A stretch of 39,472 nucleotides of DNA, from IMG/VR virus record IMGVR_UViG_2695420732_000023; one strand, written 5' to 3'. The notes under the pieces were generated by a model. That model was not told the DNA's origin. It made no database searches and saw nothing but the letters and a program-made list of their open reading frames with translations. This stretch comes from a virus (Duplodnaviria > Heunggongvirae > Uroviricota > Caudoviricetes). Positions 9,975 to 39,472 of this stretch are shown piece by piece. How positions within the stretch are numbered: position 1 is the first letter of the stretch; each line of letters starts with the position of its first letter. The position numbers and the translations under genes were made by a program.

Positions 9975-10627
9975 TGAGTAATAAATATTGCCAGGCGCTG
10001 GTGGAACTGCGGAACAAACCAGCCCATGAACTGAAGGAAGTGGGCGATCAGTGGCGCACGCCGGACAACATTTTCTGGGGAATTAACACCCTGTTTGGCC
10101 CGTTTGTTCTGGATCTGTTCACTGACGGTGATAACGCCAAATGTGCCGCGTATTACACGGCGGAAGACAACGCGCTGGCGCATGACTGGTCAGAACGTCT
10201 TGCGGAGCTTAAAGGTGCTGCCTTTGGTAATCCCCCATACAGCCGCGCCAGTCAGCATGAGGGGCAATACATCACCGGCATGCGTTACATCATGAAACAT
10301 GCCAGTGCCATGCGTGATAAGGGCGGGCGCTATGTTTTCCTGATCAAAGCTGCCACCAGCGAAGTGTGGTGGCCGGAAGATGCAGATCATATTGCTTTTA
10401 TTCGCGGGCGTATTGGTTTTGAACTGCCTGTCTGGTTTATCCCGAAAGACGAGAAGCAGGTACCGACAGGAGCTTTTTTCGCTGGTGCTATTGCTGTTTT
10501 TGACAAGACCTGGAAGGGACCGGCAATCAGCTACATCGGGCGCGATGAACTTGAGGCATGTGGTGAGGCGTTTCTGGCGCAGGTTCGCCAGCAGGCGGAA
10601 AAACTGGTCAGGGAGATGGCGGCATGA
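9974..10627 (+). CDS. phage DNA N6-adenine methyltransferase (Dam-like)
   Basis: start MSNKYCQALVELRN...DQWRTPDNIF and catalytic FGNPPYS (NPPY) motif typical of phage Dam MTases. Confidence 0.8.
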   Translation: MSNKYCQALVELRNKPAHELKEVGDQWRTPDNIFWGINTLFGPFVLDLFTDGDNAKCAAYYTAEDNALAHDWSERLAELKGAAFGNPPYSRASQHEGQYITGMRYIMKHASAMRDKGGRYVFLIKAATSEVWWPEDADHIAFIRGRIGFELPVWFIPKDEKQVPTGAFFAGAIAVFDKTWKGPAISYIGRDELEACGEAFLAQVRQQAEKLVREMAA

Positions 10628-13572: not shown

Positions 13573-14388
13573 TTATTTCTTTTTTTTATTACTTTCAGAT
13601 AATCGTCGGTTTAATGTGTATTTTATTTGGTTCCTAATCATTTTTTCAGGAATGTCATATTTGTCTAAGAATGATATTATTTCATCCTCGTCAAGCAATC
13701 CATTCTTTATAATTTCATCTATCTGTTTTTGTAGATACCAAACATCCTTCTGTTCTACAGGAGTTAAATTCATATGGCTATTTATGGAGTTGATAGTAGC
13801 ATCACGTTCAAGAACTCTAATCCTTTGATTTAATGAACGAGTGTTTTGTAATATTTCAGATAAAAGATCTTGTTCAGTACGTGGTTTTACTTCTTCAGTT
13901 GGAGGGTATTGATCTAAAGCTCGTTTAAAATTTTTTTCAAATTGCTCCCAGTATGTATTAAAAACTTGCTTTAGAATACGGTCATCTAAAGATTTATCGA
14001 CAAGACAATTGTTTATTGTCCTTACTAATTCCCAAACACTCTCTTTATTTGGCGTTGTGTGATTGAATTGAGCAAGTGGATCTTTTAAATCTTCTGGTTT
14101 TAAGTCAATCAAGAATGTACAAACTTTATTTGTTGAAAGTCCTTTTGCTAGTGCTCCTGTTTCAAACAAAATCCATGGTTTATTTTTATTTTCTTGTGTC
14201 AAACATACAATGCCGACAGATACATCTTTTAATTTATCATTAATTTCAGAGAACCATATAGCGCCACGATCAATATCTCTGGTTGAAATCCATGGCTGCG
14301 AAGCTTGGATAACACACTTCAGCCAGTCGCTAATAAGTTCTGCAACAGCTTGACTTCTTTGCCCAGACCAACTTATGAACACTTTCAT
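13573..14388 (-). CDS. TIR-like domain protein (N-terminal TIR-like fold, C-terminal domain of unknown function); candidate antiphage defence moron
   Basis: start MKVFISWSGQRSQAVAELISDWL (FISWSG motif typical of bacterial TIR-like domains), later WILFETGAL with candidate catalytic Glu; visibly AT-rich versus flanks; opposite strand to all neighbouring late genes; GGAG RBS. Confidence 0.65.
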   Translation of the reverse strand: MKVFISWSGQRSQAVAELISDWLKCVIQASQPWISTRDIDRGAIWFSEINDKLKDVSVGIVCLTQENKNKPWILFETGALAKGLSTNKVCTFLIDLKPEDLKDPLAQFNHTTPNKESVWELVRTINNCLVDKSLDDRILKQVFNTYWEQFEKNFKRALDQYPPTEEVKPRTEQDLLSEILQNTRSLNQRIRVLERDATINSINSHMNLTPVEQKDVWYLQKQIDEIIKNGLLDEDEIISFLDKYDIPEKMIRNQIKYTLNRRLSESNKKKK

Positions 14389-14512
14389 TATGTACTCCAT
14401 GTAATCACTCAAAAGGGACTGAAATTTACATTAAAAATTAAATAAAATCACTCACGCGGTCCGCAGAAACCATTGTAATCTGTTATGAGTGGTTACTTCG
14501 CCACACAACTTA

Positions 14513-14538
14513 AACCCGCCGTCGAGCGGGTTTTGTCG
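14513..14538 (+). terminator. tR'-like intrinsic terminator upstream of holin (candidate Q-antiterminated terminator)
   Basis: AACCCGC-cgtcga-GCGGGTT followed by TTTTG; lies between Q-proximal region and lysis cassette. Confidence 0.45.
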
Positions 14539-14685
14539 TTTCTGGGCCTAGGGATTAATTGCTTCTGCCCTATCCCGCAGTTATCCATTGGCTCGGCTTC
14601 TTTTACGTTTCCGCTTCTGATTTGCGGTTCGTGGTACACCCTCAATTTGCACCTCCTTTATCGGCGAGGTGAGAGATAACTACAA

Positions 14686-15012
14686 ATGCCTCATAACCCA
14701 AATACCTGGCTGGAGTTGTTCCAGAGCTGGTGGCGTGGAGACACACCACTGGGCGCAGTAATTATGTCGATCGTTATGGCTGGCTTGCGCATTGCCTATT
14801 TTGGCGGTGGTGGTGGCTGGAAGCGAAAAACGCTCGAGATTTTTCTCTGTGGCGCTCTGACACTGACTTTTGCATCCGCTCTTGAGTATGTCGGATGGCC
14901 TAAATCTCTTTCTGTTGCCATTGGTGGCGGCGTTGGGCTGATCGGGGTCGATGCTATTCGTGGTGCGGCAATGAGAGTAATCGGTAACAAGTTTGGTAGC
15001 TCGAAGGAGTAA
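14686..15012 (+). CDS. putative holin
   Basis: 108-aa ORF immediately upstream of endolysin; hydrophobic segments (VIMSIVMAGLRIAYFGGGGG, LCGALTLTFASALEYVGW, VAIGGGVGLIGV) and charged C-terminus. Confidence 0.6.
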   Translation: MPHNPNTWLELFQSWWRGDTPLGAVIMSIVMAGLRIAYFGGGGGWKRKTLEIFLCGALTLTFASALEYVGWPKSLSVAIGGGVGLIGVDAIRGAAMRVIGNKFGSSKE

Positions 15013-15015
15013 TTT

Positions 15016-15492
15016 ATGCAGGCACTAAATTCCCAGCGTAAAGCTTTCCTCGATATGGTGGCATGGTCAGAAGGAACGGATAACGGACGGCAAAAAACCA
15101 GAAATCATGGTTATGACGTCATTGTAGGCGGAGAGCTATTTACTGATTACTCCGATCATCCTCGCAAACTTGTCACACTAAACCCAAAACTAAAATCAAC
15201 AGCCGCCGGACGTTATCAGCTTCTTTCACGCTGGTGGGATGCTTATCGTAAGCAGCTTGCTCTGAAAGACTTCTCTCCGAAAAGCCAGGACGCTGTGGCA
15301 TTGCAGCAGATTAAGGAGCGTGGCGCTTTACCGATGATTGATCGCGGTGATATTCGTCAGGCAATTGACCGTTGCAGCAATATCTGGGCTTCACTGCCGG
15401 GCGCTGGTTATGGTCAGTTCGAGCATAAGGCTGACAGCCTGATTGCAAAATTCAAAGAAGCAGGCGGAACGGTCAGAGAGATTGAGGTATGA
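15016..15492 (+). CDS. R: endolysin, lambda R-type lytic transglycosylase
   Basis: 158-aa; [33 protein letters not shown]... matches lambda R nearly throughout by recall; AAGGAG RBS. Confidence 0.9.
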
Positions 15493-15950
15493 GCAGAGTA
15501 ACCGCGATTATCTCCGCTCTGGTTATCTGCATCATCGTCTGCTTGTCATGGGCTGTTAATCATTACCGCGATAACGCCATTACCTACAAAGCCCAGCGCG
15601 ACAAAAATGCCAGAGAACTGAAGCTGGCGAACTCGACAATTACTGACATGCAGGTGCGCCAGCGTGATGTTGCTGCGCTCGATGCAAAATACACGAAGGA
15701 GTTAGCTGATGCGAAAGCTGAAAATGATGCTCTGCGTGATGATGTTGCCGCTGGTCGTCGTCGGTTGCACATCAAAGCAGTCTGTCAGTCAGTGCGTGAA
15801 GCCACCACCGCCTCCGGCATGGATAATGCAGCCTCCCCCCGACTGGCAGACACCGCTGAACGGGATTATTTCACCCTCAGAGAGAGGCTGATCACTATGC
15901 AAAAACAACTGGAAGGAACCCAGAAGTATATTAATGAGCAGTGCAGATAG
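15489..15950 (+). CDS. Rz: i-spanin Rz
   Basis: 153-aa; N-terminal TM ([19 protein letters not shown]) and coiled-coil region; matches lambda Rz by recall; overlaps R stop. Confidence 0.88.
15709..15891 (+). CDS. Rz1: o-spanin Rz1 (lipoprotein, embedded in Rz in +1 frame)
   Basis: 60-aa; lipobox LVVVGC then proline-rich [15 protein letters not shown]; AAGGAG RBS inside Rz. Confidence 0.85.
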
Positions 15951-15981
15951 AGCTGCCCATATCGATGGGCAACTCATGCAA

Positions 15982-16275
15982 TTATTGTGAGCAATACACA
16001 CGTGCTTCCAGCGGAGTATAAATGCCTAAAGTAATAAAACCGAGCAATCCATTTACGAATGTTTGCTGGGTTTCTGTTTTAACCACATTTTCTGCGCCGC
16101 CACAAATTTTGGCTGCATCAACAGTTTTCTCCTGTCCAATTCCCGAAACGAAGAAATGATGGGTGATGGTTTCCTTTGGTGTTACTGCTGTCGGTTTGTT
16201 TCCAACAGTAAACGTCTGTTGAGCACATCCTGTAATAAGCATTGCCAGAGCGGCAGAAAACAACATTTTTTTCAT
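15982..16275 (-). CDS. bor: Bor outer-membrane lipoprotein (serum resistance)
   Basis: 97-aa from MKKMLFSAALAMLITGCAQQ (lipobox); matches lambda Bor by recall; track ORF trimmed to ATG at 16275 with AGGA RBS. Confidence 0.88.
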   Translation of the reverse strand: MKKMLFSAALAMLITGCAQQTFTVGNKPTAVTPKETITHHFFVSGIGQEKTVDAAKICGGAENVVKTETQQTFVNGLLGFITLGIYTPLEARVYCSQ

Positions 16276-16455
16276 CTTATTATCCTGCATTGTTAAAAAC
16301 GGCAGAATCCTATGTGACAACAATTAAACGATAGTTAAATGGATTGATGAAAATTAAAACTATATAGGTGTACGGTCAGACTATTGGAGGTAGTCAGGAT
16401 TTGAATGTCAGTCTGTTGTCGGCATTCTGGCAATGCAATTTGGATAAAGCGGGGA

Positions 16456-16578
16456 TTAAAAAGATAGAGGCGAGCCGGTCAGGTAGAAATGAATCAGGCT
16501 TAAAGTGAAGCGGAAAAGGTCTGTGGCACAAGCTGATGCAGCCATAATTACAGCCTGATGATTTGTGGAATGAAACAT
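16456..16578 (-). CDS. hypothetical 40-aa ORF with strong Shine-Dalgarno (below track size cutoff)
   Basis: TAAGGAGGT 6 nt upstream of ATG at 16578; translation MFHSTNHQAVIMAASACATDLFRFTLSLIHFYLTGSPLSF. Confidence 0.3.
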   Translation of the reverse strand: MFHSTNHQAVIMAASACATDLFRFTLSLIHFYLTGSPLSF

Positions 16579-16658
16579 GTTGAACCTCCTTAATTGATGT
16601 TATTCGAGTGATGAAGGCATTCTGTCCTTCTATAGTGTCCAGTAAATCAAACAGGAAA

Positions 16659-34128: not shown

Positions 34129-34887
34129 ATGCATCGTATAGACACGAAAACCGCGCAGAAGGATAAGTTCGGCGCGGGTAAGAACGGTTTTACCCGTGGT
34201 AACCCCCAAACCGGCACACCTGCCACCGATCTGGATGATGACTACTTTGACATGTTGCAGGAAGAACTTTGTAGCGTGGTGGAGGCCTCCGGTGCCAGCC
34301 TGGAGAAAGGGCGGCATGACCAGCTGCTTACCGCACTTCGTGCGCTGCTGTTAAGCCGCAAGAATCCGTTTGGCGATATCAAATCGGATGGCACAGTGCA
34401 AACGGCTCTCGAAAACCTTGGTTTGGGAGAAGGTGCTCCAGCTATTGGCGTTCCGTTCTTCTGGCCGTCCGCTGCAATGCCAAATACTGTAATCGACAGC
34501 TGGTCCAGTATGGTGTTTCTGAAGTTCAACGGAGCCACATTCTCAGCGTCGAATTATCCAAAACTCGCTCTGGTGTTTCCTGCATTAACACTGCCTGAAG
34601 CACGCGGTGAATTTATTCGTATCTGGGATGATGGCCGTGGCGTTGACAGTGGCCGTGCATTACTTTCCGCACAATCAGACGATTTCAAAACGCACGAGCA
34701 TAAAATTTTAGGGCTAAATGGAAGTGGCAGTAATGTAGTGTTTGGCACCGTTTCGAATGCTTCTCCATTATATACCAGCGGCGTTAGTCAGCCGGCTGGA
34801 AGTGCTTTGCCCGCTTTTCAAAACCCAGGCGGTACTGAAACGCGTCCCCGTAACATCGCATTCAACTTTTTAGTAAGGGCTAAATAA
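34129..34887 (+). CDS. tail fibre protein (constant N-terminal part to ~34428 fused to currently expressed variable part Sv)
   Basis: 252-aa; hix/gix-like crossover site inside gene at 34416-34442; followed by tail fibre assembly gene. Confidence 0.8.
34416..34442. repeat. invertase crossover site (hix/gix-like) within tail fibre gene
   Basis: CTCTCGAAAACCTTGGTTTGGGAGAAG resembles hixL TTCTTGAAAACCAAGGTTTTTGATAA; inverted partner at 36385-36411. Confidence 0.55.
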
Positions 34888-35480
34888 TGAAACCTGTTTT
34901 TGATGAAAATGGACTGGCTACAGTGCCGGGTGATATGCGTTGTTTTTATTATGATGCAGTAACGTATGAATATACGGGCTGGTCTGATGAATATATTAAT
35001 ACTGGCGTAAGTATGCCCGCCTGTTCCACTGGTATTGACCCTGGCGAAAACATTCCGGGAAAAGTGGCAGTATTTACGGGTAAGGGATGGAGCCATGAAG
35101 AAGACCATCGCAATGAGACTGTTTACTCAATCGAAAATGGCGCAGCTGTTACAGTGGATTATATCGGTGCCATCAAAAACGGTTATGTCACGCTTTCACC
35201 GTTAACGCCATATGATAAATGGGATGGTGAGAAATGGGTGACAGATACTGAGGCACAACACGGTGCCGCAGTAGAAGCGGCAGAAGCACAGCGCCAGTCA
35301 CTGATTGATGCTGCAATGGCTTCCATCAGCCTGATTCAGCTGAAATTACAGGCCGGGCGGAAGCTGACGCAGGCAGAAACCACCCGGCTTAACGCCGTGC
35401 TTGATTACATTGACGCGGTGACGGCAACAGATACGAGCACCGCGCCGGATGTCATCTGGCCTGAACTGCCGGAGGCGTAG
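34887..35480 (+). CDS. tail fibre assembly chaperone (Tfa)
   Basis: 197-aa; start overlaps fibre stop; typical Tfa size and position. Confidence 0.8.
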   Translation: MKPVFDENGLATVPGDMRCFYYDAVTYEYTGWSDEYINTGVSMPACSTGIDPGENIPGKVAVFTGKGWSHEEDHRNETVYSIENGAAVTVDYIGAIKNGYVTLSPLTPYDKWDGEKWVTDTEAQHGAAVEAAEAQRQSLIDAAMASISLIQLKLQAGRKLTQAETTRLNAVLDYIDAVTATDTSTAPDVIWPELPEA

Positions 35481-35895
35481 GCCATTCAATATCTGGCGCA
35501 CCGGAAGTATCGACCAGCTCCAGTACGTCCAGATAATCCAGCCACAAATTATATTGCGCCAGTTCCTCACCTTTCAGGCGACCAATCGCTGCTTTACCAG
35601 GCCATTGCTTACTGTATATGTATTCGTTGACCTGATTAATCAATTGCTGCTTTTCCAGTTCGGCTGCGGCAATTTGTTCCTCATGAGTTGGCGGTGGAAT
35701 TTCCCCCCAGGTGGGAAGGCCATCATCACCCGCGATGCGTACTTTCCCTTGCAACGTTCTGTCTTCAATAAATTCCAGGTAAGTGTCATATGTCACTTCG
35801 ACAATATCAGCAAGTTCCCATCCGGCCTGTTCATATTTCGCCACATCATTTTTAGCGAAAAAACTATTATTTGAGGCGCTATAAACCATTTCCAT
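35452..35895 (-). CDS. alternative tail fibre assembly chaperone (Tfa') in inverted orientation
   Basis: 147-aa; C-terminal region resembles Tfa C-terminus (APDIEWPTPP versus APDVIWPELP in Tfa); convergent with Tfa. Confidence 0.75.
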   Translation of the reverse strand: MEMVYSASNNSFFAKNDVAKYEQAGWELADIVEVTYDTYLEFIEDRTLQGKVRIAGDDGLPTWGEIPPPTHEEQIAAAELEKQQLINQVNEYIYSKQWPGKAAIGRLKGEELAQYNLWLDYLDVLELVDTSGAPDIEWPTPPAVQAR

Positions 35896-35896
35896 A

Positions 35897-36399
35897 TTAA
35901 TACCCTACTGCAATATAAAAAACTGATTCACCAGCGTCCTGAGAACCTACCCCCGGAACGCCAGACCAGGCTTTGTTAATGAATGCAAAACTGGTATTAC
36001 TCAGATCAGATGCTCTGTACATCGGGCTGAACATCCAGTAGTTGGCTCCATATGTTTGTCCGAAAACAATGCCATAGCACTGATTTGTAAATGGCGTAGA
36101 AAATAATTTTCCACCAGTACCAGCGATAGTCCCGAATCGCATCTGGAACCCATTCGGGAAATTAATTCCGCCTGCCGGTGAAGACCAGTAAGACATATCA
36201 GGTATTTGCCCAGCACTATTTCCCACGTTTTTTGTTGCAACGGTTCCTAACCCAAGATTAGCTCTTGCATCAGATTTATTTGTTAACTCATAAAGATTAT
36301 TTGCCTTTTGAAGTGCTCCTGTTATGCGTAAATCATCACCAGCGGCAACGGTTCCGACTGTCGTGCCCACATCCCTTTTCGCCGCTTCTCCTAAACCAA
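35897..36399 (-). CDS. alternative tail fibre variable segment (Sv'), lacking its own start in present orientation
   Basis: minus-strand frame open from crossover site to stop at 35897; glycine-rich fibre-like sequence; would fuse to fibre constant part after inversion. Confidence 0.6.
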
Positions 36400-36411
36400 C
36401 ATTTATGAAAA
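36385..36411. repeat. invertase crossover site (inverted partner)
   Basis: reverse complement matches 34428-34442 at 14 of 15 positions (TTGGTTTAGGAGAAG versus TTGGTTTGGGAGAAG). Confidence 0.5.
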
Positions 36412-36465
36412 TGCAGAAATAACGAGCAAATGGCATCATTCCTGCTTTTGCTAGGGAGATCTACC

Positions 36466-36594
36466 ATGCTTATTGGCTATGTACGTGTGTCAACAAATGA
36501 CCAGAACACAGATCTACAACGTAATGCGCTGAACTGTGCAGGATGCGAGCTGATTTTTGAAGACAAGATAAGCGGTACAAAGTCCGAAACCTAG
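36466..36594 (+). pseudogene. pin: Pin/Gin/Hin-family serine DNA invertase, truncated after 42 codons
   Basis: MLIGYVRVSTNDQNTDLQRNALNCAGCELIFEDKISGT matches the N-terminus of Pin-family invertases by recall, then stop; a full invertase is ~190 aa. Confidence 0.8.
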
Positions 36595-36632
36595 GGCTGA
36601 CACTGCTGTTCTTGTTGCAAATTAAAGGATTT

Positions 36633-36658
36633 AATAGTGAGTAGCGGCCTTACTAATG
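36633..36658. terminator. perfect hairpin AGCGGCCTTAC-taat-GTAAGGCCGCT between pin remnant and DUF262/DUF1524 gene
   Basis: 11-bp perfect stem, 4-nt loop; lies between convergent gene ends. Confidence 0.45.
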
Positions 36659-36689
36659 TAAGGCCGCTATAATCATTTTATTAATTGCA

Positions 36690-38579
36690 TTAATCGTGTT
36701 TTGGCCATACTTTCAATGCAATTTCCCCCAACATTTTACCCCGCTCCAGGATTTCATCCTCATCCCATTTATCCTTAACTATAAGTGGAATGTTCAGTCG
36801 TAGATTGGTGTGGACGATGAGAGCATCACGTTTTTTCAGAAATACAGCATTCTGAACAGAACGGTTTACGCTAAGGTTAAGCAAAGTTAGATTTCCCAAC
36901 GTAGCTATCGCTTGTTGCCGTTTCCTTACCAGTAGCTGTTCTGGGGTAAGATCGGTTCCAGACAGAACAATTTGGTTCAATACCGTAGCATCTGAATTTG
37001 TCACCATATGACCATTTTCGAGAGGCCAACAGGAATACCAACTTTGAGGCATAAGATGATCGATATCGAGGTTAGAAAGATTTGGAACATCAGGCTTCTC
37101 TGTCTTCACTTGGCGACAAAGTTCTCTTTCAAGTTCCGTTAACATTGAGCGCATTTTCGGTGCGTCGAGCCTGCCAGGATAAAGTGGAGCATTGATGCAA
37201 GCGTTGAGAAATTCTGAGTCCCCAGGCCAACGTGAGGCTTCGCCATTTAAGCTATTGAGGATATTACGTAACTCAACACTGGAAATTTCTGTTTTAGACA
37301 AGTGCCGCAATACATTCATAAATACATTGTTGTAATTCTTTGGCGTCAGGCCACATACGGCTCTTCGTACTACGTAGGAGACAAGATCATTATACATGGC
37401 TGCTTTCTCATCATCGGCGATGTTAGCTATCGAAATGAACAAAGCAAGCGGATAAAGTGTCGTCACATCATAGGCTGCGATGCGATGTCCAAAGTGTGAG
37501 ATGGGGGTTGTGCCAAAACCACCAACCAATTCTTTATATTGTGATGCATATTGTTTGAGGCGCTTTACTTGCAGATCTGCTCGTTGTGAAGGCAAGTCCT
37601 TACTTACATAATCACGATACTCATTGTAAAGACGAGACAGATCGATTTCACGTTGCCTTTCTGATTGCAATGTTGCATGCACTAGCCACTCCATGCGTGG
37701 TTTATTAATACGACCACGACGTTGTCTTTCTGACCAGTACGTATCTTCAAAGATCTTCCACTCATTCTCATATAATTCAACAGCATTAATATTTTCATGT
37801 TCAGCGCACATAAAAATATAATTGCGAATAAGATCTGTGGCATGAAGTTCCGCACCTCTGCCATTTAATGTTTCAAAAATTATTTGAGCGTCATCTTCAG
37901 CCTCGAGAAATATGCTTACTAGTTTCAGATCCGTCAAGACAGCCTCAATTAATGCTACAGCATTTTCTCGTGGTGAGTGATTTTCTATTTTAATCCACTT
38001 TATAAAGGCTTCAGTAAAAAAACATAATGCTTCTAGTGATGGCGGGTGATTAAAATGCTTACGCAACGTACCATGCTGCGTGAAACTATCAGAGAATACA
38101 TTCCGGATATCGTCAATATTTTCAACATTAAAACTTTGAATAAAATGAGTTTGATCCCGAAAAGTTGGCCACAGTTTGAAGCGCTCTACTTCTTTATTTC
38201 GCATTGTGTCTTCGTTTGAGTTTTTCAGGCAAGACGAAATGAGAGGCTCTAAGTAGGAAAGATCTGTTGCACGTAATGCTAATCGGATGGATGCCAGAAC
38301 ATATTGAAGAGTGGTCAATCGTTGCTGACCATCAATAATATGTATGGAATCTACACCGAATAATCCTTTTTTTGGTTGAGGTTCCAGTACAACTGCACCA
38401 AGGAAATGGGGAGTTGGTTTTGTACCCGAGAGCCGGGATTGTGCTTTCTCTAGGATATCCTCCAGTAGAGCTGACCATTGGTTTCGCTGAGTCCATACAT
38501 AGGCACGTTGATAGAATGGAACACAGTATTGTCGGCGGTCTTGAAAAAGTTGTTGGACAGTTAGCGTCTCGGATTTCAT
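36690..38579 (-). CDS. fused DUF262/DUF1524 protein (GmrSD-like putative type IV modification-dependent restriction endonuclease)
   Basis: N-terminal FYQRAYVWTQRNQW and DGQQRLTTL (DUF262/ParB-like NTPase motifs), C-terminal DIDHLMPQS (DUF1524 His-Me finger-like); AT-rich; start set at ATG 38579 (MKSETLTV), alternative ATG at 38639. Confidence 0.75.
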   Translation of the reverse strand: MKSETLTVQQLFQDRRQYCVPFYQRAYVWTQRNQWSALLEDILEKAQSRLSGTKPTPHFLGAVVLEPQPKKGLFGVDSIHIIDGQQRLTTLQYVLASIRLALRATDLSYLEPLISSCLKNSNEDTMRNKEVERFKLWPTFRDQTHFIQSFNVENIDDIRNVFSDSFTQHGTLRKHFNHPPSLEALCFFTEAFIKWIKIENHSPRENAVALIEAVLTDLKLVSIFLEAEDDAQIIFETLNGRGAELHATDLIRNYIFMCAEHENINAVELYENEWKIFEDTYWSERQRRGRINKPRMEWLVHATLQSERQREIDLSRLYNEYRDYVSKDLPSQRADLQVKRLKQYASQYKELVGGFGTTPISHFGHRIAAYDVTTLYPLALFISIANIADDEKAAMYNDLVSYVVRRAVCGLTPKNYNNVFMNVLRHLSKTEISSVELRNILNSLNGEASRWPGDSEFLNACINAPLYPGRLDAPKMRSMLTELERELCRQVKTEKPDVPNLSNLDIDHLMPQSWYSCWPLENGHMVTNSDATVLNQIVLSGTDLTPEQLLVRKRQQAIATLGNLTLLNLSVNRSVQNAVFLKKRDALIVHTNLRLNIPLIVKDKWDEDEILERGKMLGEIALKVWPKHD

Positions 38580-39046
38580 GGTATACCTGTAAGCGACATT
38601 GTACAAAAGTGAGGAGTTAATCTGATTTAGAACAATCATTTTATGTTGCTATGATACAACGTATTTGTTACCGGTTAAGTAAAAAACGCGTCTGAACGCT
38701 GACGTTTTAGGGCTTTACTAGTTATTCTTTCTTATCTCTTCATCATCCCATCGGCATCCTGTCGAGGTTGTTGACTTGTTGTTATTTATTTTGTTTAGGC
38801 GCTGTTTAATTATTATTGATGGGACTGGTGGTGAGAGGTGATTGAAACCGCAGACAGGTCGTATGCAAGACGTGCTGCGGTTGGCTGATGCACTTTTGAT
38901 AGTGCAAGTATTGAATGATTGCCAGTCACAGCGGATTGTACTTAGGTAATATGACGGTTCAAGGCGTTTAAACTGAAACCATCCACATATCAGTCTCTTC
39001 AAACATTTCCTAAATCGTTCGGCTTATCTGTTCTTTCTCACGTTTG

Positions 39047-39472
39047 CTGACGTCAGTGCTGATTGCCGGCAGTGTCATCATCGGTTTTACACGATACCCT
39101 TTGCGTTGAACGAGTCGTACTACTGTAACAACGCGTCGGTGAAGCTGCTCATCCCGACACAGGACAGTCGGGATATCATTGCAGTAGCAACGGGGAGTCT
39201 GGATGCAATATGGAAAGACGGACACCGATATCAGAAAGCCGGGGTAATGCTGGGGGACTTCTTCAGTCAGAGCATGCCCTAACCTATTCGACGATAACGC
39301 GCTGGGTCCTGGGAGCGAAAAGTTAATGAGCGTGCTGGAGCACCTCAACGCAAAAGACGGGAAGGAAACACTCTGTTTCGCTGGGCAGGGCATTCAGCAG
39401 CAGTGGCAGATGAAACGCGAGATATTTTCGCACCGGTATACAACTAGATTTTCTGGCATTTTAGGTGGTTAG
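39047..39472 (+). pseudogene. 3' remnant of a umuC-like (Y-family polymerase) gene with frame disruptions
   Basis: translated pieces in two frames (…SRDIIAVATGSLDAIWKDGHRYQKAGVMLGDFFSQ / LFDDNALGPGSEKLMSVLEHLNAKDGKETLCFAGQGIQQQWQMKREIFSHRYTTR) resemble the UmuC C-terminus by recall; no N-terminal part present. Confidence 0.45.

Follow-up and report, generated by a model that had tools for sequence, protein, structure and literature searches.

Two questions are raised by the gene lying close to the right end of the prophage contained in the window (i.e., the whole stretch of 39,472 nucleotides analysed here, IMG/VR record IMGVR_UViG_2695420732_000023): what kind of enzyme does it encode, and how did it come to occupy the place of an invertase gene? 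The answer that we consider very probable is that the gene is an allele of gmrSD, belonging to the lineage of the CT596, Eco94 and UTI89 enzymes, that is carried, as a putative moron, by an SfII-like prophage at thrW and that arrived in a single cassette replacing part of pin before spreading further. The core of this finding is already known. Indeed, publications (PMC4437046, PMC4619093) already cover the enzyme, the SfII-like prophage, the position after the tail-fibre genes and the neighbouring invertase: He et al. 2015 (PMC4437046) described gmrSD just past the tail-fibre genes of a 41.5-kb SfII-like prophage, and Machnicka 2015 credits Bair & Black 2007 with having noted the invertase. 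What is added here is comparative, namely the junction of the pin replacement, its spread and the contents of the slot in which it lies.

The window represents an SfII-like prophage inserted at thrW in E. coli, and its positions 36400-39472 match E. coli O103 ML775 at 100%. The attL site corresponds to the 3' half of thrW (1399-1446 of the window) and the matching attR is found ~2.7 kb past the window end (position 17760 of the comparison locus L001), the distance from thrW to the att repeat being ~40.8 kb. The location of the gene at the "prophage end", as proposed by the initial annotation, is thus roughly right, gmrSD lying ~3.6 kb inside the right end. The possibility of a tandem-prophage boundary was considered and rejected, no second thrW att copy of at least 12 bp being present between gmrSD and the right-arm block. 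The features on either side of the gene and its surroundings are:

34418-36399, no strand assigned: invertible tail-fibre segment (P/G-type), bounded by the inverted crossover sites TTGGTTTGGGAGAAG
39010-39096, minus strand: dinI remnant (RefSeq annotation of the identical locus)
39091-39472, plus strand: umuC-like DUF4113 remnant (RefSeq annotation of the identical locus)

The first of these comprises two opposed sets of tail-fibre C-terminal and assembly genes with Caudo_TAP domains on both strands, and the equivalent segment is cleanly inverted between two of the compared loci (L007 and L010). The two remnants open a right-arm block that runs beyond the window to attR and that recurs with 99% identity in strain 3150, next to a lambdoid prophage.

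The gene itself was defined on the basis of its open reading frame, Pfam domains, PADLOC and identity to characterised GmrSD:

36690-38579, minus strand: gmrSD CDS, 629 aa

The longest reading frame extends from 36690 to 38639 (minus strand, 649 aa) and the true start is almost certainly M21 (38579), since the RefSeq/PGAP start, the match to the PADLOC model PDLC03655, which begins at M21, and the expressed length of Eco94GmrSD all agree; the resulting protein has the size (~630 aa) originally attributed to it. The profile search suggested for the postulated DUF262/DUF1524 fusion finds both domains over about their full length, GmrSD_N (PF03235, formerly DUF262) with an E-value of 7e-34 over 199 of 199 profile positions and GmrSD_C (PF07510, formerly DUF1524) with 5.9e-20 over 137 of 138, and the best PADLOC model is that of the stand-alone mREase_IV (PDLC03655, 1434.7 bits, 629/629 positions). 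All three motifs noticed beforehand are located in the protein, QRAYVW at residue 24, DGQQR at 83-87 and DIDHLMPQS at 505-513; DGQQR is the same in 18 of 18 alleles compared and the His-Me finger is intact (D507-H508-L-M-P511, then N522). The protein has no match in NCBIfam, and a tblastn search of 50,697 phage records yielded no close relative (top match 24% identity), so that gmrSD is seen in prophages only and not in isolated phages.

Membership in the GmrSD family, as initially proposed, is settled by the 94–96% identity to characterised enzymes. Compared with the reference sequences of Suppl. Fig. S1 of PMC4437046, the window allele is identical at 591/629 positions (94.0%) to Eco94GmrSD (ECSTEC94C_1402, WP_000834395) and to the single-chain CT596 GmrSD, and at 605/629 (96.2%) to UTI89 GmrSD (UTI89_C2960), all of these proteins having the same length and aligning without gaps. 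Judged from its sequence, the window protein is no new enzyme but a naturally occurring allele of the GmrSD prototype.

The functional background is provided by the Eco94/CT596 enzymes. Eco94GmrSD acts alone, its cleavage of glc-5hmC and 5hmC DNA is stimulated by ATP and unmodified DNA is not cut, while T4 lacking ip1 is restricted >10^6-fold by GmrSD; the D507A, H508A and N522A mutants are inactive and an E278A/K280A double mutant is strongly impaired (PMC4437046). GmrSD of CT596 is specifically blocked by Ip1 (PMC12373910). Every residue whose mutation abolished cleavage (D507, H508, N522) is present in the window allele, in which N528, N535, E271, E273 and E278 are likewise kept; DGQQR and D507/H508/N522/N528/N535 are identical between Eco94/CT596 and the window, and so is the prophage setting (SfII-like, ~41 kb, gmrSD immediately following the tail-fibre genes). 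From the homology with Eco94GmrSD, one would expect the N-terminal DUF262 (ParB/Srx-like, DGQQR) to be responsible for NTP-dependent activation and the C-terminal DUF1524 His-Me finger (D507-H508...N522) to cut DNA containing 5-hydroxymethylcytosine or its glucosylated form; a lysogen would then exclude T-even phages unless these inject a matching inhibitor, such as IPI* of T4. On the other side of the comparison, the window allele differs from the active Eco94/CT596 enzymes by 38 substitutions, 27 of which fall within the first 204 residues (8-204). K280 of the ExEx4ExK stretch is replaced by T, a change that is probably tolerated because T280 is found in a second allele group too and the gene-wide dN/dS is low.

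The closest characterised sequence is that of UTI89 GmrSD; E. coli ATCC 11775 has this same allele, from which the window allele differs by 24 substitutions. The UTI89 type has in common with the window the pin'-gmrSD junction and the kind of prophage, whereas its prophage is at ssrA instead of thrW and its right flank is different, consisting of a dinI-like pseudogene followed by PD-T4-3. UTI89 GmrSD showed no activity in vitro on DNA of T4, T2 or T6, and both T4 and IPI-deficient T4 escape restriction by the UTI89 strain, although it restricts some other T-even phages and is reportedly immune to IPI* (supplement of PMC4437046). The window allele carries the UTI89 residue at 27 of the 38 sites at which it differs from Eco94, and evolution is faster in the N-terminal 210 codons than in the remainder (dN/dS 0.31 vs 0.11). 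These data would fit an intact allele encoding something other than a T4-type glc-5hmC enzyme: as with UTI89 GmrSD, its substrate range or its sensitivity to inhibitors might be shifted, or it might lack activity when alone. We consider this reading rather unlikely: the catalytic and DGQQR residues are all there, 13 variable sites, H524 next to the active site among them, have the CT596/Eco94 residue and not that of UTI89, and the dN/dS of the whole gene (0.15, at a dS of 0.107, relative to the UTI89-type allele) indicates purifying selection and suggests that the function of gmrSD has been maintained. Overall, the window allele combines a UTI89-like N-terminal domain with CT596-like sequence elsewhere, plus K280T.

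The gene for a GmrSD of the prototype kind would be a self-contained accessory gene (moron), situated in the right arm of the SfII-like myovirus prophage at thrW. It is highly improbable that the protein represents instead the nuclease part of a larger system, like BrxU in BREX or SspE in the sensing of phosphorothioates by Ssp/Dnd. Secondary PADLOC matches to the SspE (1.3e-15, confined to the N-terminal ~100 residues, 23-131), Orf5 and HEC-06 models do point in this direction, as does the match (8.5e-08) to the DUF262 protein 9jfl, the only chain reaching E 0.01 in a sequence search of the PDB. BrxU of the pEFER BREX island is described (PMC8565348, PMC12409352) as having the same DUF262 + DUF1524 architecture and a general mechanism like that of GmrSD. 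However, BrxU sits in a BREX operon, whereas no BREX, Ssp or Dnd genes were found in the prophage or its flanks (48-kb annotated region), the neighbours being tail-fibre genes and pseudogene remnants; moreover, the Eco94 enzyme, to which the protein is 94% identical, functions by itself and the best model is a full-length stand-alone one.

The second question, i.e., how the gene reached its position, can be approached by comparison with intact pinE loci, which defines the following features:

36466-36594, plus strand: pin 5' remnant, with its ATG at 36466, 41 pin codons, one foreign codon (T) and a stop (36592-36594)
36590-38829, no strand assigned: foreign cassette replacing the pin interior, 2.24 kb, 40.7% GC, breakpoints set against intact pinE loci
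38830-38925, plus strand: pin 3' remnant (last ~20 nt) and structured element following the stop, right flank of the replacement

Besides gmrSD and the hairpin on its 3' side, the cassette comprises a conserved non-coding stretch of ~250 bp on the 5' side of the gene. The AT-richness of the gene, perceived in its first reading, is borne out by the GC content of the CDS, 41.4% as against 55.5% for the prophage structural genes. The pin 5' remnant, labelled in RefSeq as a recombinase without C-terminus, is recognized by the Pfam Resolvase profile (6.5e-09) and has 94–97% nucleotide identity to pinE. Since the similarity to intact pinE ends at 36589 and restarts at ~38830 in the same orientation, the cassette must have taken the place of the pin interior, of which ~415 bp were lost while 124 bp of the 5' end and ~20 nt of the 3' end were left; both ends abut the cassette directly, with no extra DNA in between. 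The right flank matches positions 6643-6702 of the pinE locus L004, spanning the pinE stop at 6658, and positions 4001-4080 of L006, directly after a pin pseudogene; the element after the stop folds with a z-score of -4.6, and the gmrSD-bearing loci part from each other at 38920-38925.

These junctions lend support to the earlier suggestion that the insertion truncated the invertase, and the AT-rich cassette would have replaced the pin interior in one event. Only the end state is visible, nevertheless, and the carriers have the same two junctions, with no intermediate that could separate one step from two. Thus, pin might have been broken beforehand, or a deletion might have followed an initial insertion of the cassette within pin or next to it. 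A Mom-like ORF that has independently replaced the pin interior elsewhere (break at pin nt 107 vs 124, i.e., 17 nt apart) shows that the region is repeatedly rearranged. Still, with both pin ends in the same orientation and abutting the cassette, replacement in one step is the simplest explanation, and a stepwise history seems to us rather unlikely. As to the donor, a scan of one genome per species gave a single close relative outside E. coli, in Enterobacteriaceae bacterium B14 (79% identity), where the similarity is confined to the CDS plus 34 nt and pin is absent nearby, so that it offers no clue to the origin of the whole cassette.

Two elements flank the coding sequence within the cassette:

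36641-36670, no strand assigned: hairpin 20 nt downstream of the gmrSD stop, 12 perfect pairs (13 with G-T), 4-nt loop
38651-38678, minus strand: candidate sigma-70-like promoter of gmrSD, TTAACC, 16-nt spacer, TATCAT (prediction, 9/12 consensus match)

The hairpin seen between the gene and the pin remnant is real, its perfect stem having 12 pairs and not 11. Its arms, TAGCGGCCTTAC (36642-36653) and GTAAGGCCGCTA (36658-36669), enclose the loop TAAT; the fold has a z-score of -6.2 to -6.6 and none of 200 shuffled sequences is equally stable. On the plus strand it resembles a terminator with a T-rich tail, an A-rich tract being present on the opposite side. A search of Rfam with 36000-39472 (E<=1) gave only two implausible sub-threshold matches (an archaeal snoRNA and a miRNA), so that neither the hairpin nor the post-pin element belongs to a known RNA family. 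The putative promoter is conserved in all aligned alleles, in a region where the consensus scan returned 10 promoter-like sites against 7.1 expected. A terminator candidate upstream of the gene (38685-38712, minus strand) was dropped because its fold is no more stable than that of shuffled sequence (z -0.09). The ~250 bp upstream of gmrSD are almost invariant between allele groups and contain no supported small ORF, so that nothing points to an antitoxin or immunity gene next to gmrSD; the entire stretch 38580-39009 is, as originally described, without a credible ORF. IS elements are found just upstream of gmrSD in some strains; in strain GN05064 an IS5 lies between the candidate promoter and the start codon.

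The cassette is widespread. gmrSD occurs in 306 of 5426 complete E. coli genomes (~5.6%), and the left junction (201-bp query, 36500-36700 of the window, at least 80% covered) is present in ~304 of these 306. The carrier prophages occupy at least four sites (thrW, ssrA, the tRNA-Pro beside yejM and the Qin-like flxA site), and the window-type allele is found at ≥99% identity in 69 complete genomes; related prophages without gmrSD exist as well. Sequence resembling pin is present in ~1460 genomes. The pin'-gmrSD unit would thus have spread through related prophages at several attachment sites, diverging into allele groups under purifying selection.

Finally, the position past pin was held to be a defence hotspot in which one modification-dependent nuclease had been swapped for another, McrA being the counterpart in e14. 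The comparison of the locus in related prophages upholds the hotspot qualitatively and in a small sample: the tail-fibre/pin modules carry McrA, a McrBC-like pair, PD-T4-3, a DUF4365 protein, the Mom-like fusion, an unknown ORF or nothing. McrA and GmrSD are both type IV modification-dependent nucleases; McrA targets 5mC/5hmC and GmrSD targets glc-5hmC/5hmC. In e14 the homologous module has the order ymfQ, tail fibre, tfa, tfa', tail fibre', pin, nuclease, attR, with McrA in the equivalent place. However, McrA, an HNH-type enzyme, is unrelated in sequence to GmrSD (PADLOC PDLC03656 vs PDLC03655), and the swap is not like-for-like: in e14 an intact pinE precedes mcrA on the same strand and the 38838-38925 flank found in the window is missing, whereas gmrSD is inside pin on the opposite strand. 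The exchange is positional and not allelic.

The pin interior has been replaced independently at least twice, with breakpoints no more than 17 nt apart, and the stretch in or just after pin of e14/SfII-like prophages may be a recurrent specific landing site for nucleases directed against the modified DNA of T-even phages, namely McrA, the McrBC-like pair, GmrSD and PD-T4-3. In addition, the window-type allele may be a functionally distinct arms-race variant against T-even internal proteins, being, for instance, immune to IPI* yet active on T4-type DNA. That either or both of these ideas hold is possible, though less likely than not.

The GmrSD of the CT596/Eco94/UTI89 lineage being the founding member of the family, nothing is added here at the level of the enzyme. 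The pin::gmrSD junction, on the other hand, cleanly marks one acquisition event, which ~5.6% of complete E. coli genomes now share; the allele groups of gmrSD could aid the mapping of the determinants of IPI* sensitivity, and the slot next to pin looks small and easily scanned for further anti-T-even genes.

The features on which the analysis centres are located in the window as follows:

36466-36594, plus strand: 5' remnant of the invertase gene pin
36590-38829: cassette of 2.24 kb holding gmrSD, its 3' hairpin and ~250 bp of 5' non-coding DNA
36642-36653 and 36658-36669: arms of the hairpin between gmrSD and the pin remnant (12 perfect base pairs; fold z-score ~ -6.4)
36690-38639, minus strand: longest ORF (649 aa)
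38579, minus strand: ATG within this ORF (629 aa)

The ATG at 38579 is almost certainly the functional start of gmrSD, since it is the start placed by RefSeq in an identical genome, since the PADLOC model PDLC03655 aligns to ORF residues 21-649 with all its 629 positions covered, and since Eco94GmrSD as expressed likewise counts 629 aa (PMC4437046). The initial annotation, which had described an AT-rich, minus-strand ORF of ~630 aa with DUF262 and DUF1524 motifs, is borne out in these respects: QRAYVW, DGQQR and DIDHLMPQS are found at residues 24, 83 and 505; the Pfam domains GmrSD_N (PF03235, formerly DUF262; 7e-34) at the N-terminus and GmrSD_C (PF07510, formerly DUF1524; 5.9e-20) at the C-terminus are both matched full-length; and the GC content of the gene is 41.4%, as opposed to 55.5% in the prophage structural genes. 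The hairpin also exists, its stem having 12 rather than the 11 base pairs originally counted.

The assignment to the GmrSD family is equally firm. In ungapped comparison with the three enzymes of Supplementary Fig. S1 of He et al. 2015 (PMC4437046), the window protein is identical at 591 of 629 residues (94.0%) to both Eco94GmrSD and single-chain CT596 GmrSD, and at 605 of 629 (96.2%) to UTI89 GmrSD, whose residue it carries at most sites separating UTI89 from CT596/Eco94. It keeps D507, H508 and N522, alanine substitution of any of which abolishes cleavage (PMC4437046), as well as N528, N535, E271, E273 and E278. The one notable change, K280T, represents a natural polymorphism, T280 being present also in a second allele group. 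All 1185 members of the 90% cluster of the protein are named only "DUF262 domain-containing protein", which probably explains why gmrSD looks uncharacterised in annotation.

E. coli O103 strain ML775 matches window 36400-39472 at 100% identity. In its annotation proA, thrW and an integrase are followed by a complete-looking prophage whose early genes are e14/CPS-53-like and whose contractile tail has a baseplate; the tail genes close, in order, with ymfQ and a tail-fibre gene, a pair of opposed tail-fibre assembly genes, another tail-fibre fragment and the truncated recombinase. A second copy of the thrW 3' half (window 1399-1446) lies ~2.7 kb past the window end, so that the integrated element measures ~40.8 kb and gmrSD lies inside it, ~3.6 kb from attR. 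The right arm, from window 38875-39472 on to attR (14476-17800 of the ML775 locus), contains remnants of dinI, a umuC-like gene and an SOS-response peptidase gene, two unknown ORFs and a ParA-family ATPase; strain 3150 has this block, at 99% identity, in a lambdoid prophage that is unrelated but occupies the same chromosomal locus (L005 5001-8000), and the block may be either a remnant resident there or a module that thrW prophages have exchanged. The prophage carries a second defence-like accessory gene, encoding a 279-aa TIR-TM protein (window 13573-14412, minus strand; PDLC03016, 1.4e-57), in an island of 33-37% GC with the Q antiterminator on one side and lysis genes on the other.

That the insertion had truncated the invertase, as initially proposed, is supported by both breakpoints. 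Aligned with the intact pinE genes of e14 and of a further prophage (L004), the window shows similarity from the crossover site 5' of pin as far as 36589, which is pin nucleotide 124, where the similarity ends; it starts again at ~38830, window 38830-38889 matching L004 6643-6702 across the pinE stop codon at 6658 and window 38845-38924 matching the DNA immediately 3' of the pin pseudogene of a Rac-like remnant (L006), both in the orientation of the pin 5' remnant. Read from these alignments, the cassette truncated pin in the sense of a replacement, 2240 bp of 40.7% GC standing in place of ~415 bp of pin.

A structured element of ~90 nt (window 38838-38925; two hairpins, z -4.6), without a match in Rfam, in other prophages comes directly after the stop codon of pin and recurs between chromosomal ykgJ and ecpE (24777-24844 of the ML775 locus and 10165-10233 of that of strain 3150); divergence among gmrSD-bearing loci starts exactly at its right end. 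The tail-fibre segment (window 34418-36399) is flanked by inverted crossover sites TTGGTTTGGGAGAAG. Strains ATCC 11775 and GN05064 agree in prophage, gmrSD allele and pin truncation, yet differ by a clean inversion of a 1.94-kb tail-fibre segment (L007 1907-3845 vs L010 782-2720; 20-bp overlap at each junction); the inversion thus postdates the destruction of pin and was presumably carried out in trans by another pin-family invertase.

Related modules having the invertase as the last phage gene (about a dozen loci, without a control set) carry varied neighbours of pin.

Neighbours of pin
McrA: e14
651-aa AAA_5 ATPase and McrC pair (McrBC-like): L006 4352-7425, directly 3' of the pin pseudogene, after IS1
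PD-T4-3, a validated anti-T4 GIY-YIG protein: three O157-type or related loci
DUF4365 protein: same thrW locus, pin intact
Mom-like ORF fused in frame to the pin N-terminus: breakpoint 17 nt from that of gmrSD
215-aa unknown ORF
Nothing at all

PD-T4-3 is also found beyond gmrSD at ssrA. In the fusion (PK8568, L011 4104-5839) pin runs for 107 nt and then passes into the Mom-like ORF (PF25680, annotated "XF1762 family"), an unknown 344-aa ORF coming next; here the interior of pin has been replaced a second time, independently, in an arrangement reminiscent of gin-mom in phage Mu. These dozen or so loci support the view of a slot with variable cargo, in which nucleases directed at modified-DNA phages are frequent. 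The invertase of P2-like prophages lies internally with no cargo adjoining it; the idea of tail-fibre/invertase regions as mixed-purpose hotspots has already been published for P2-like phages (bioRxiv 10.1101/2024.10.15.618418). The proposal of a defence hotspot in which one nuclease was swapped for another stands as regards the varied cargo. McrA is indeed found just past pin in e14; however, pinE is intact there and mcrA lies beyond it in the same orientation, whereas gmrSD lies within pin, and e14 lacks the right-hand flank of the gmrSD locus, so that the relation between the two is positional only.

The DUF262 half has been assigned a ParB/Srx-like NTPase fold, and the DUF1524 half the HNH/His-Me nuclease (Machnicka et al., PMC4619093). 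Eco94GmrSD, which requires Mg2+ or Mn2+ and is stimulated by ATP and other NTPs but not by gamma-S-ATP, cuts T4 (glc-5hmC) and T4gt (5hmC) DNA and barely cuts lambda DNA; it restricts T4 lacking ip1 >10^6-fold and wild-type T4 only weakly, owing to inhibition by the IPI* protein that the phage injects, and its over-expression is toxic in recA-deficient cells (PMC4437046). T4 Ip1, Ip2 and Ip3 each inhibit a different GmrSD variant, Ip1 being specific to the CT596 type (PMC12373910). By analogy, the window enzyme would carry out NTP-stimulated cutting of glc-5hmC/5hmC DNA. With respect to the UTI89-type allele, dN/dS is 0.15 (dS 0.107), indicating that gmrSD is under purifying selection; constraint is weaker over the N-terminal 210 codons (0.31 vs 0.11), a pattern consistent with a functional enzyme that has its more variable face in the N-terminal half. 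Purified UTI89 GmrSD showed no activity on DNA of T4, T2 or T6, and the restriction pattern of the UTI89 strain differs (supplement of PMC4437046); this inactivity and the UTI89-like residues leave a real uncertainty as to the activity of the window allele. Directly upstream of gmrSD (window-equivalent 38627-38746) three IS elements are found in different strains, namely IS2 (L009 6199-7427), IS5 (L010 5000-5968), which falls between the predicted promoter and the start codon, and IS1 (match H9); they may silence a toxic gene.

gmrSD occurs in 306 of 5426 complete E. coli genomes, and a 201-bp query over the left junction (window 36500-36700) reaches a coverage of at least 80% in 304 of the 5426. 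Carrier prophages occupy thrW, ssrA, tRNA-Pro beside yejM and a Qin-like flxA site. The simplest account is a single ancestral event, after which the unit spread by recombination among related prophages. gmrSD was found neither on plasmids of the complete E. coli genomes nor in 50,697 phage records. One genome (NZ_CP166435.1 3649376-3649512) retains the pin remnant along with the initial ~48 bp of the cassette, the match stopping at window 36637, which suggests secondary loss of gmrSD.

The enzyme, its mechanism, its toxicity and a phage-encoded inhibitor are already in print, as are an SfII-like carrier prophage and the position of gmrSD just after the tail-fibre genes (PMC4437046); CT596 gmrS/gmrD are described as adjoined by tail-fibre-assembly-like and invertase-like ORFs (Bair & Black 2007, via PMC4619093). 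The exact pin replacement junctions, their near-universality among gmrSD carriers, the allele-group structure and the list of alternative slot occupants were not found in the literature searched, and represent incremental additions to an already known enzyme.
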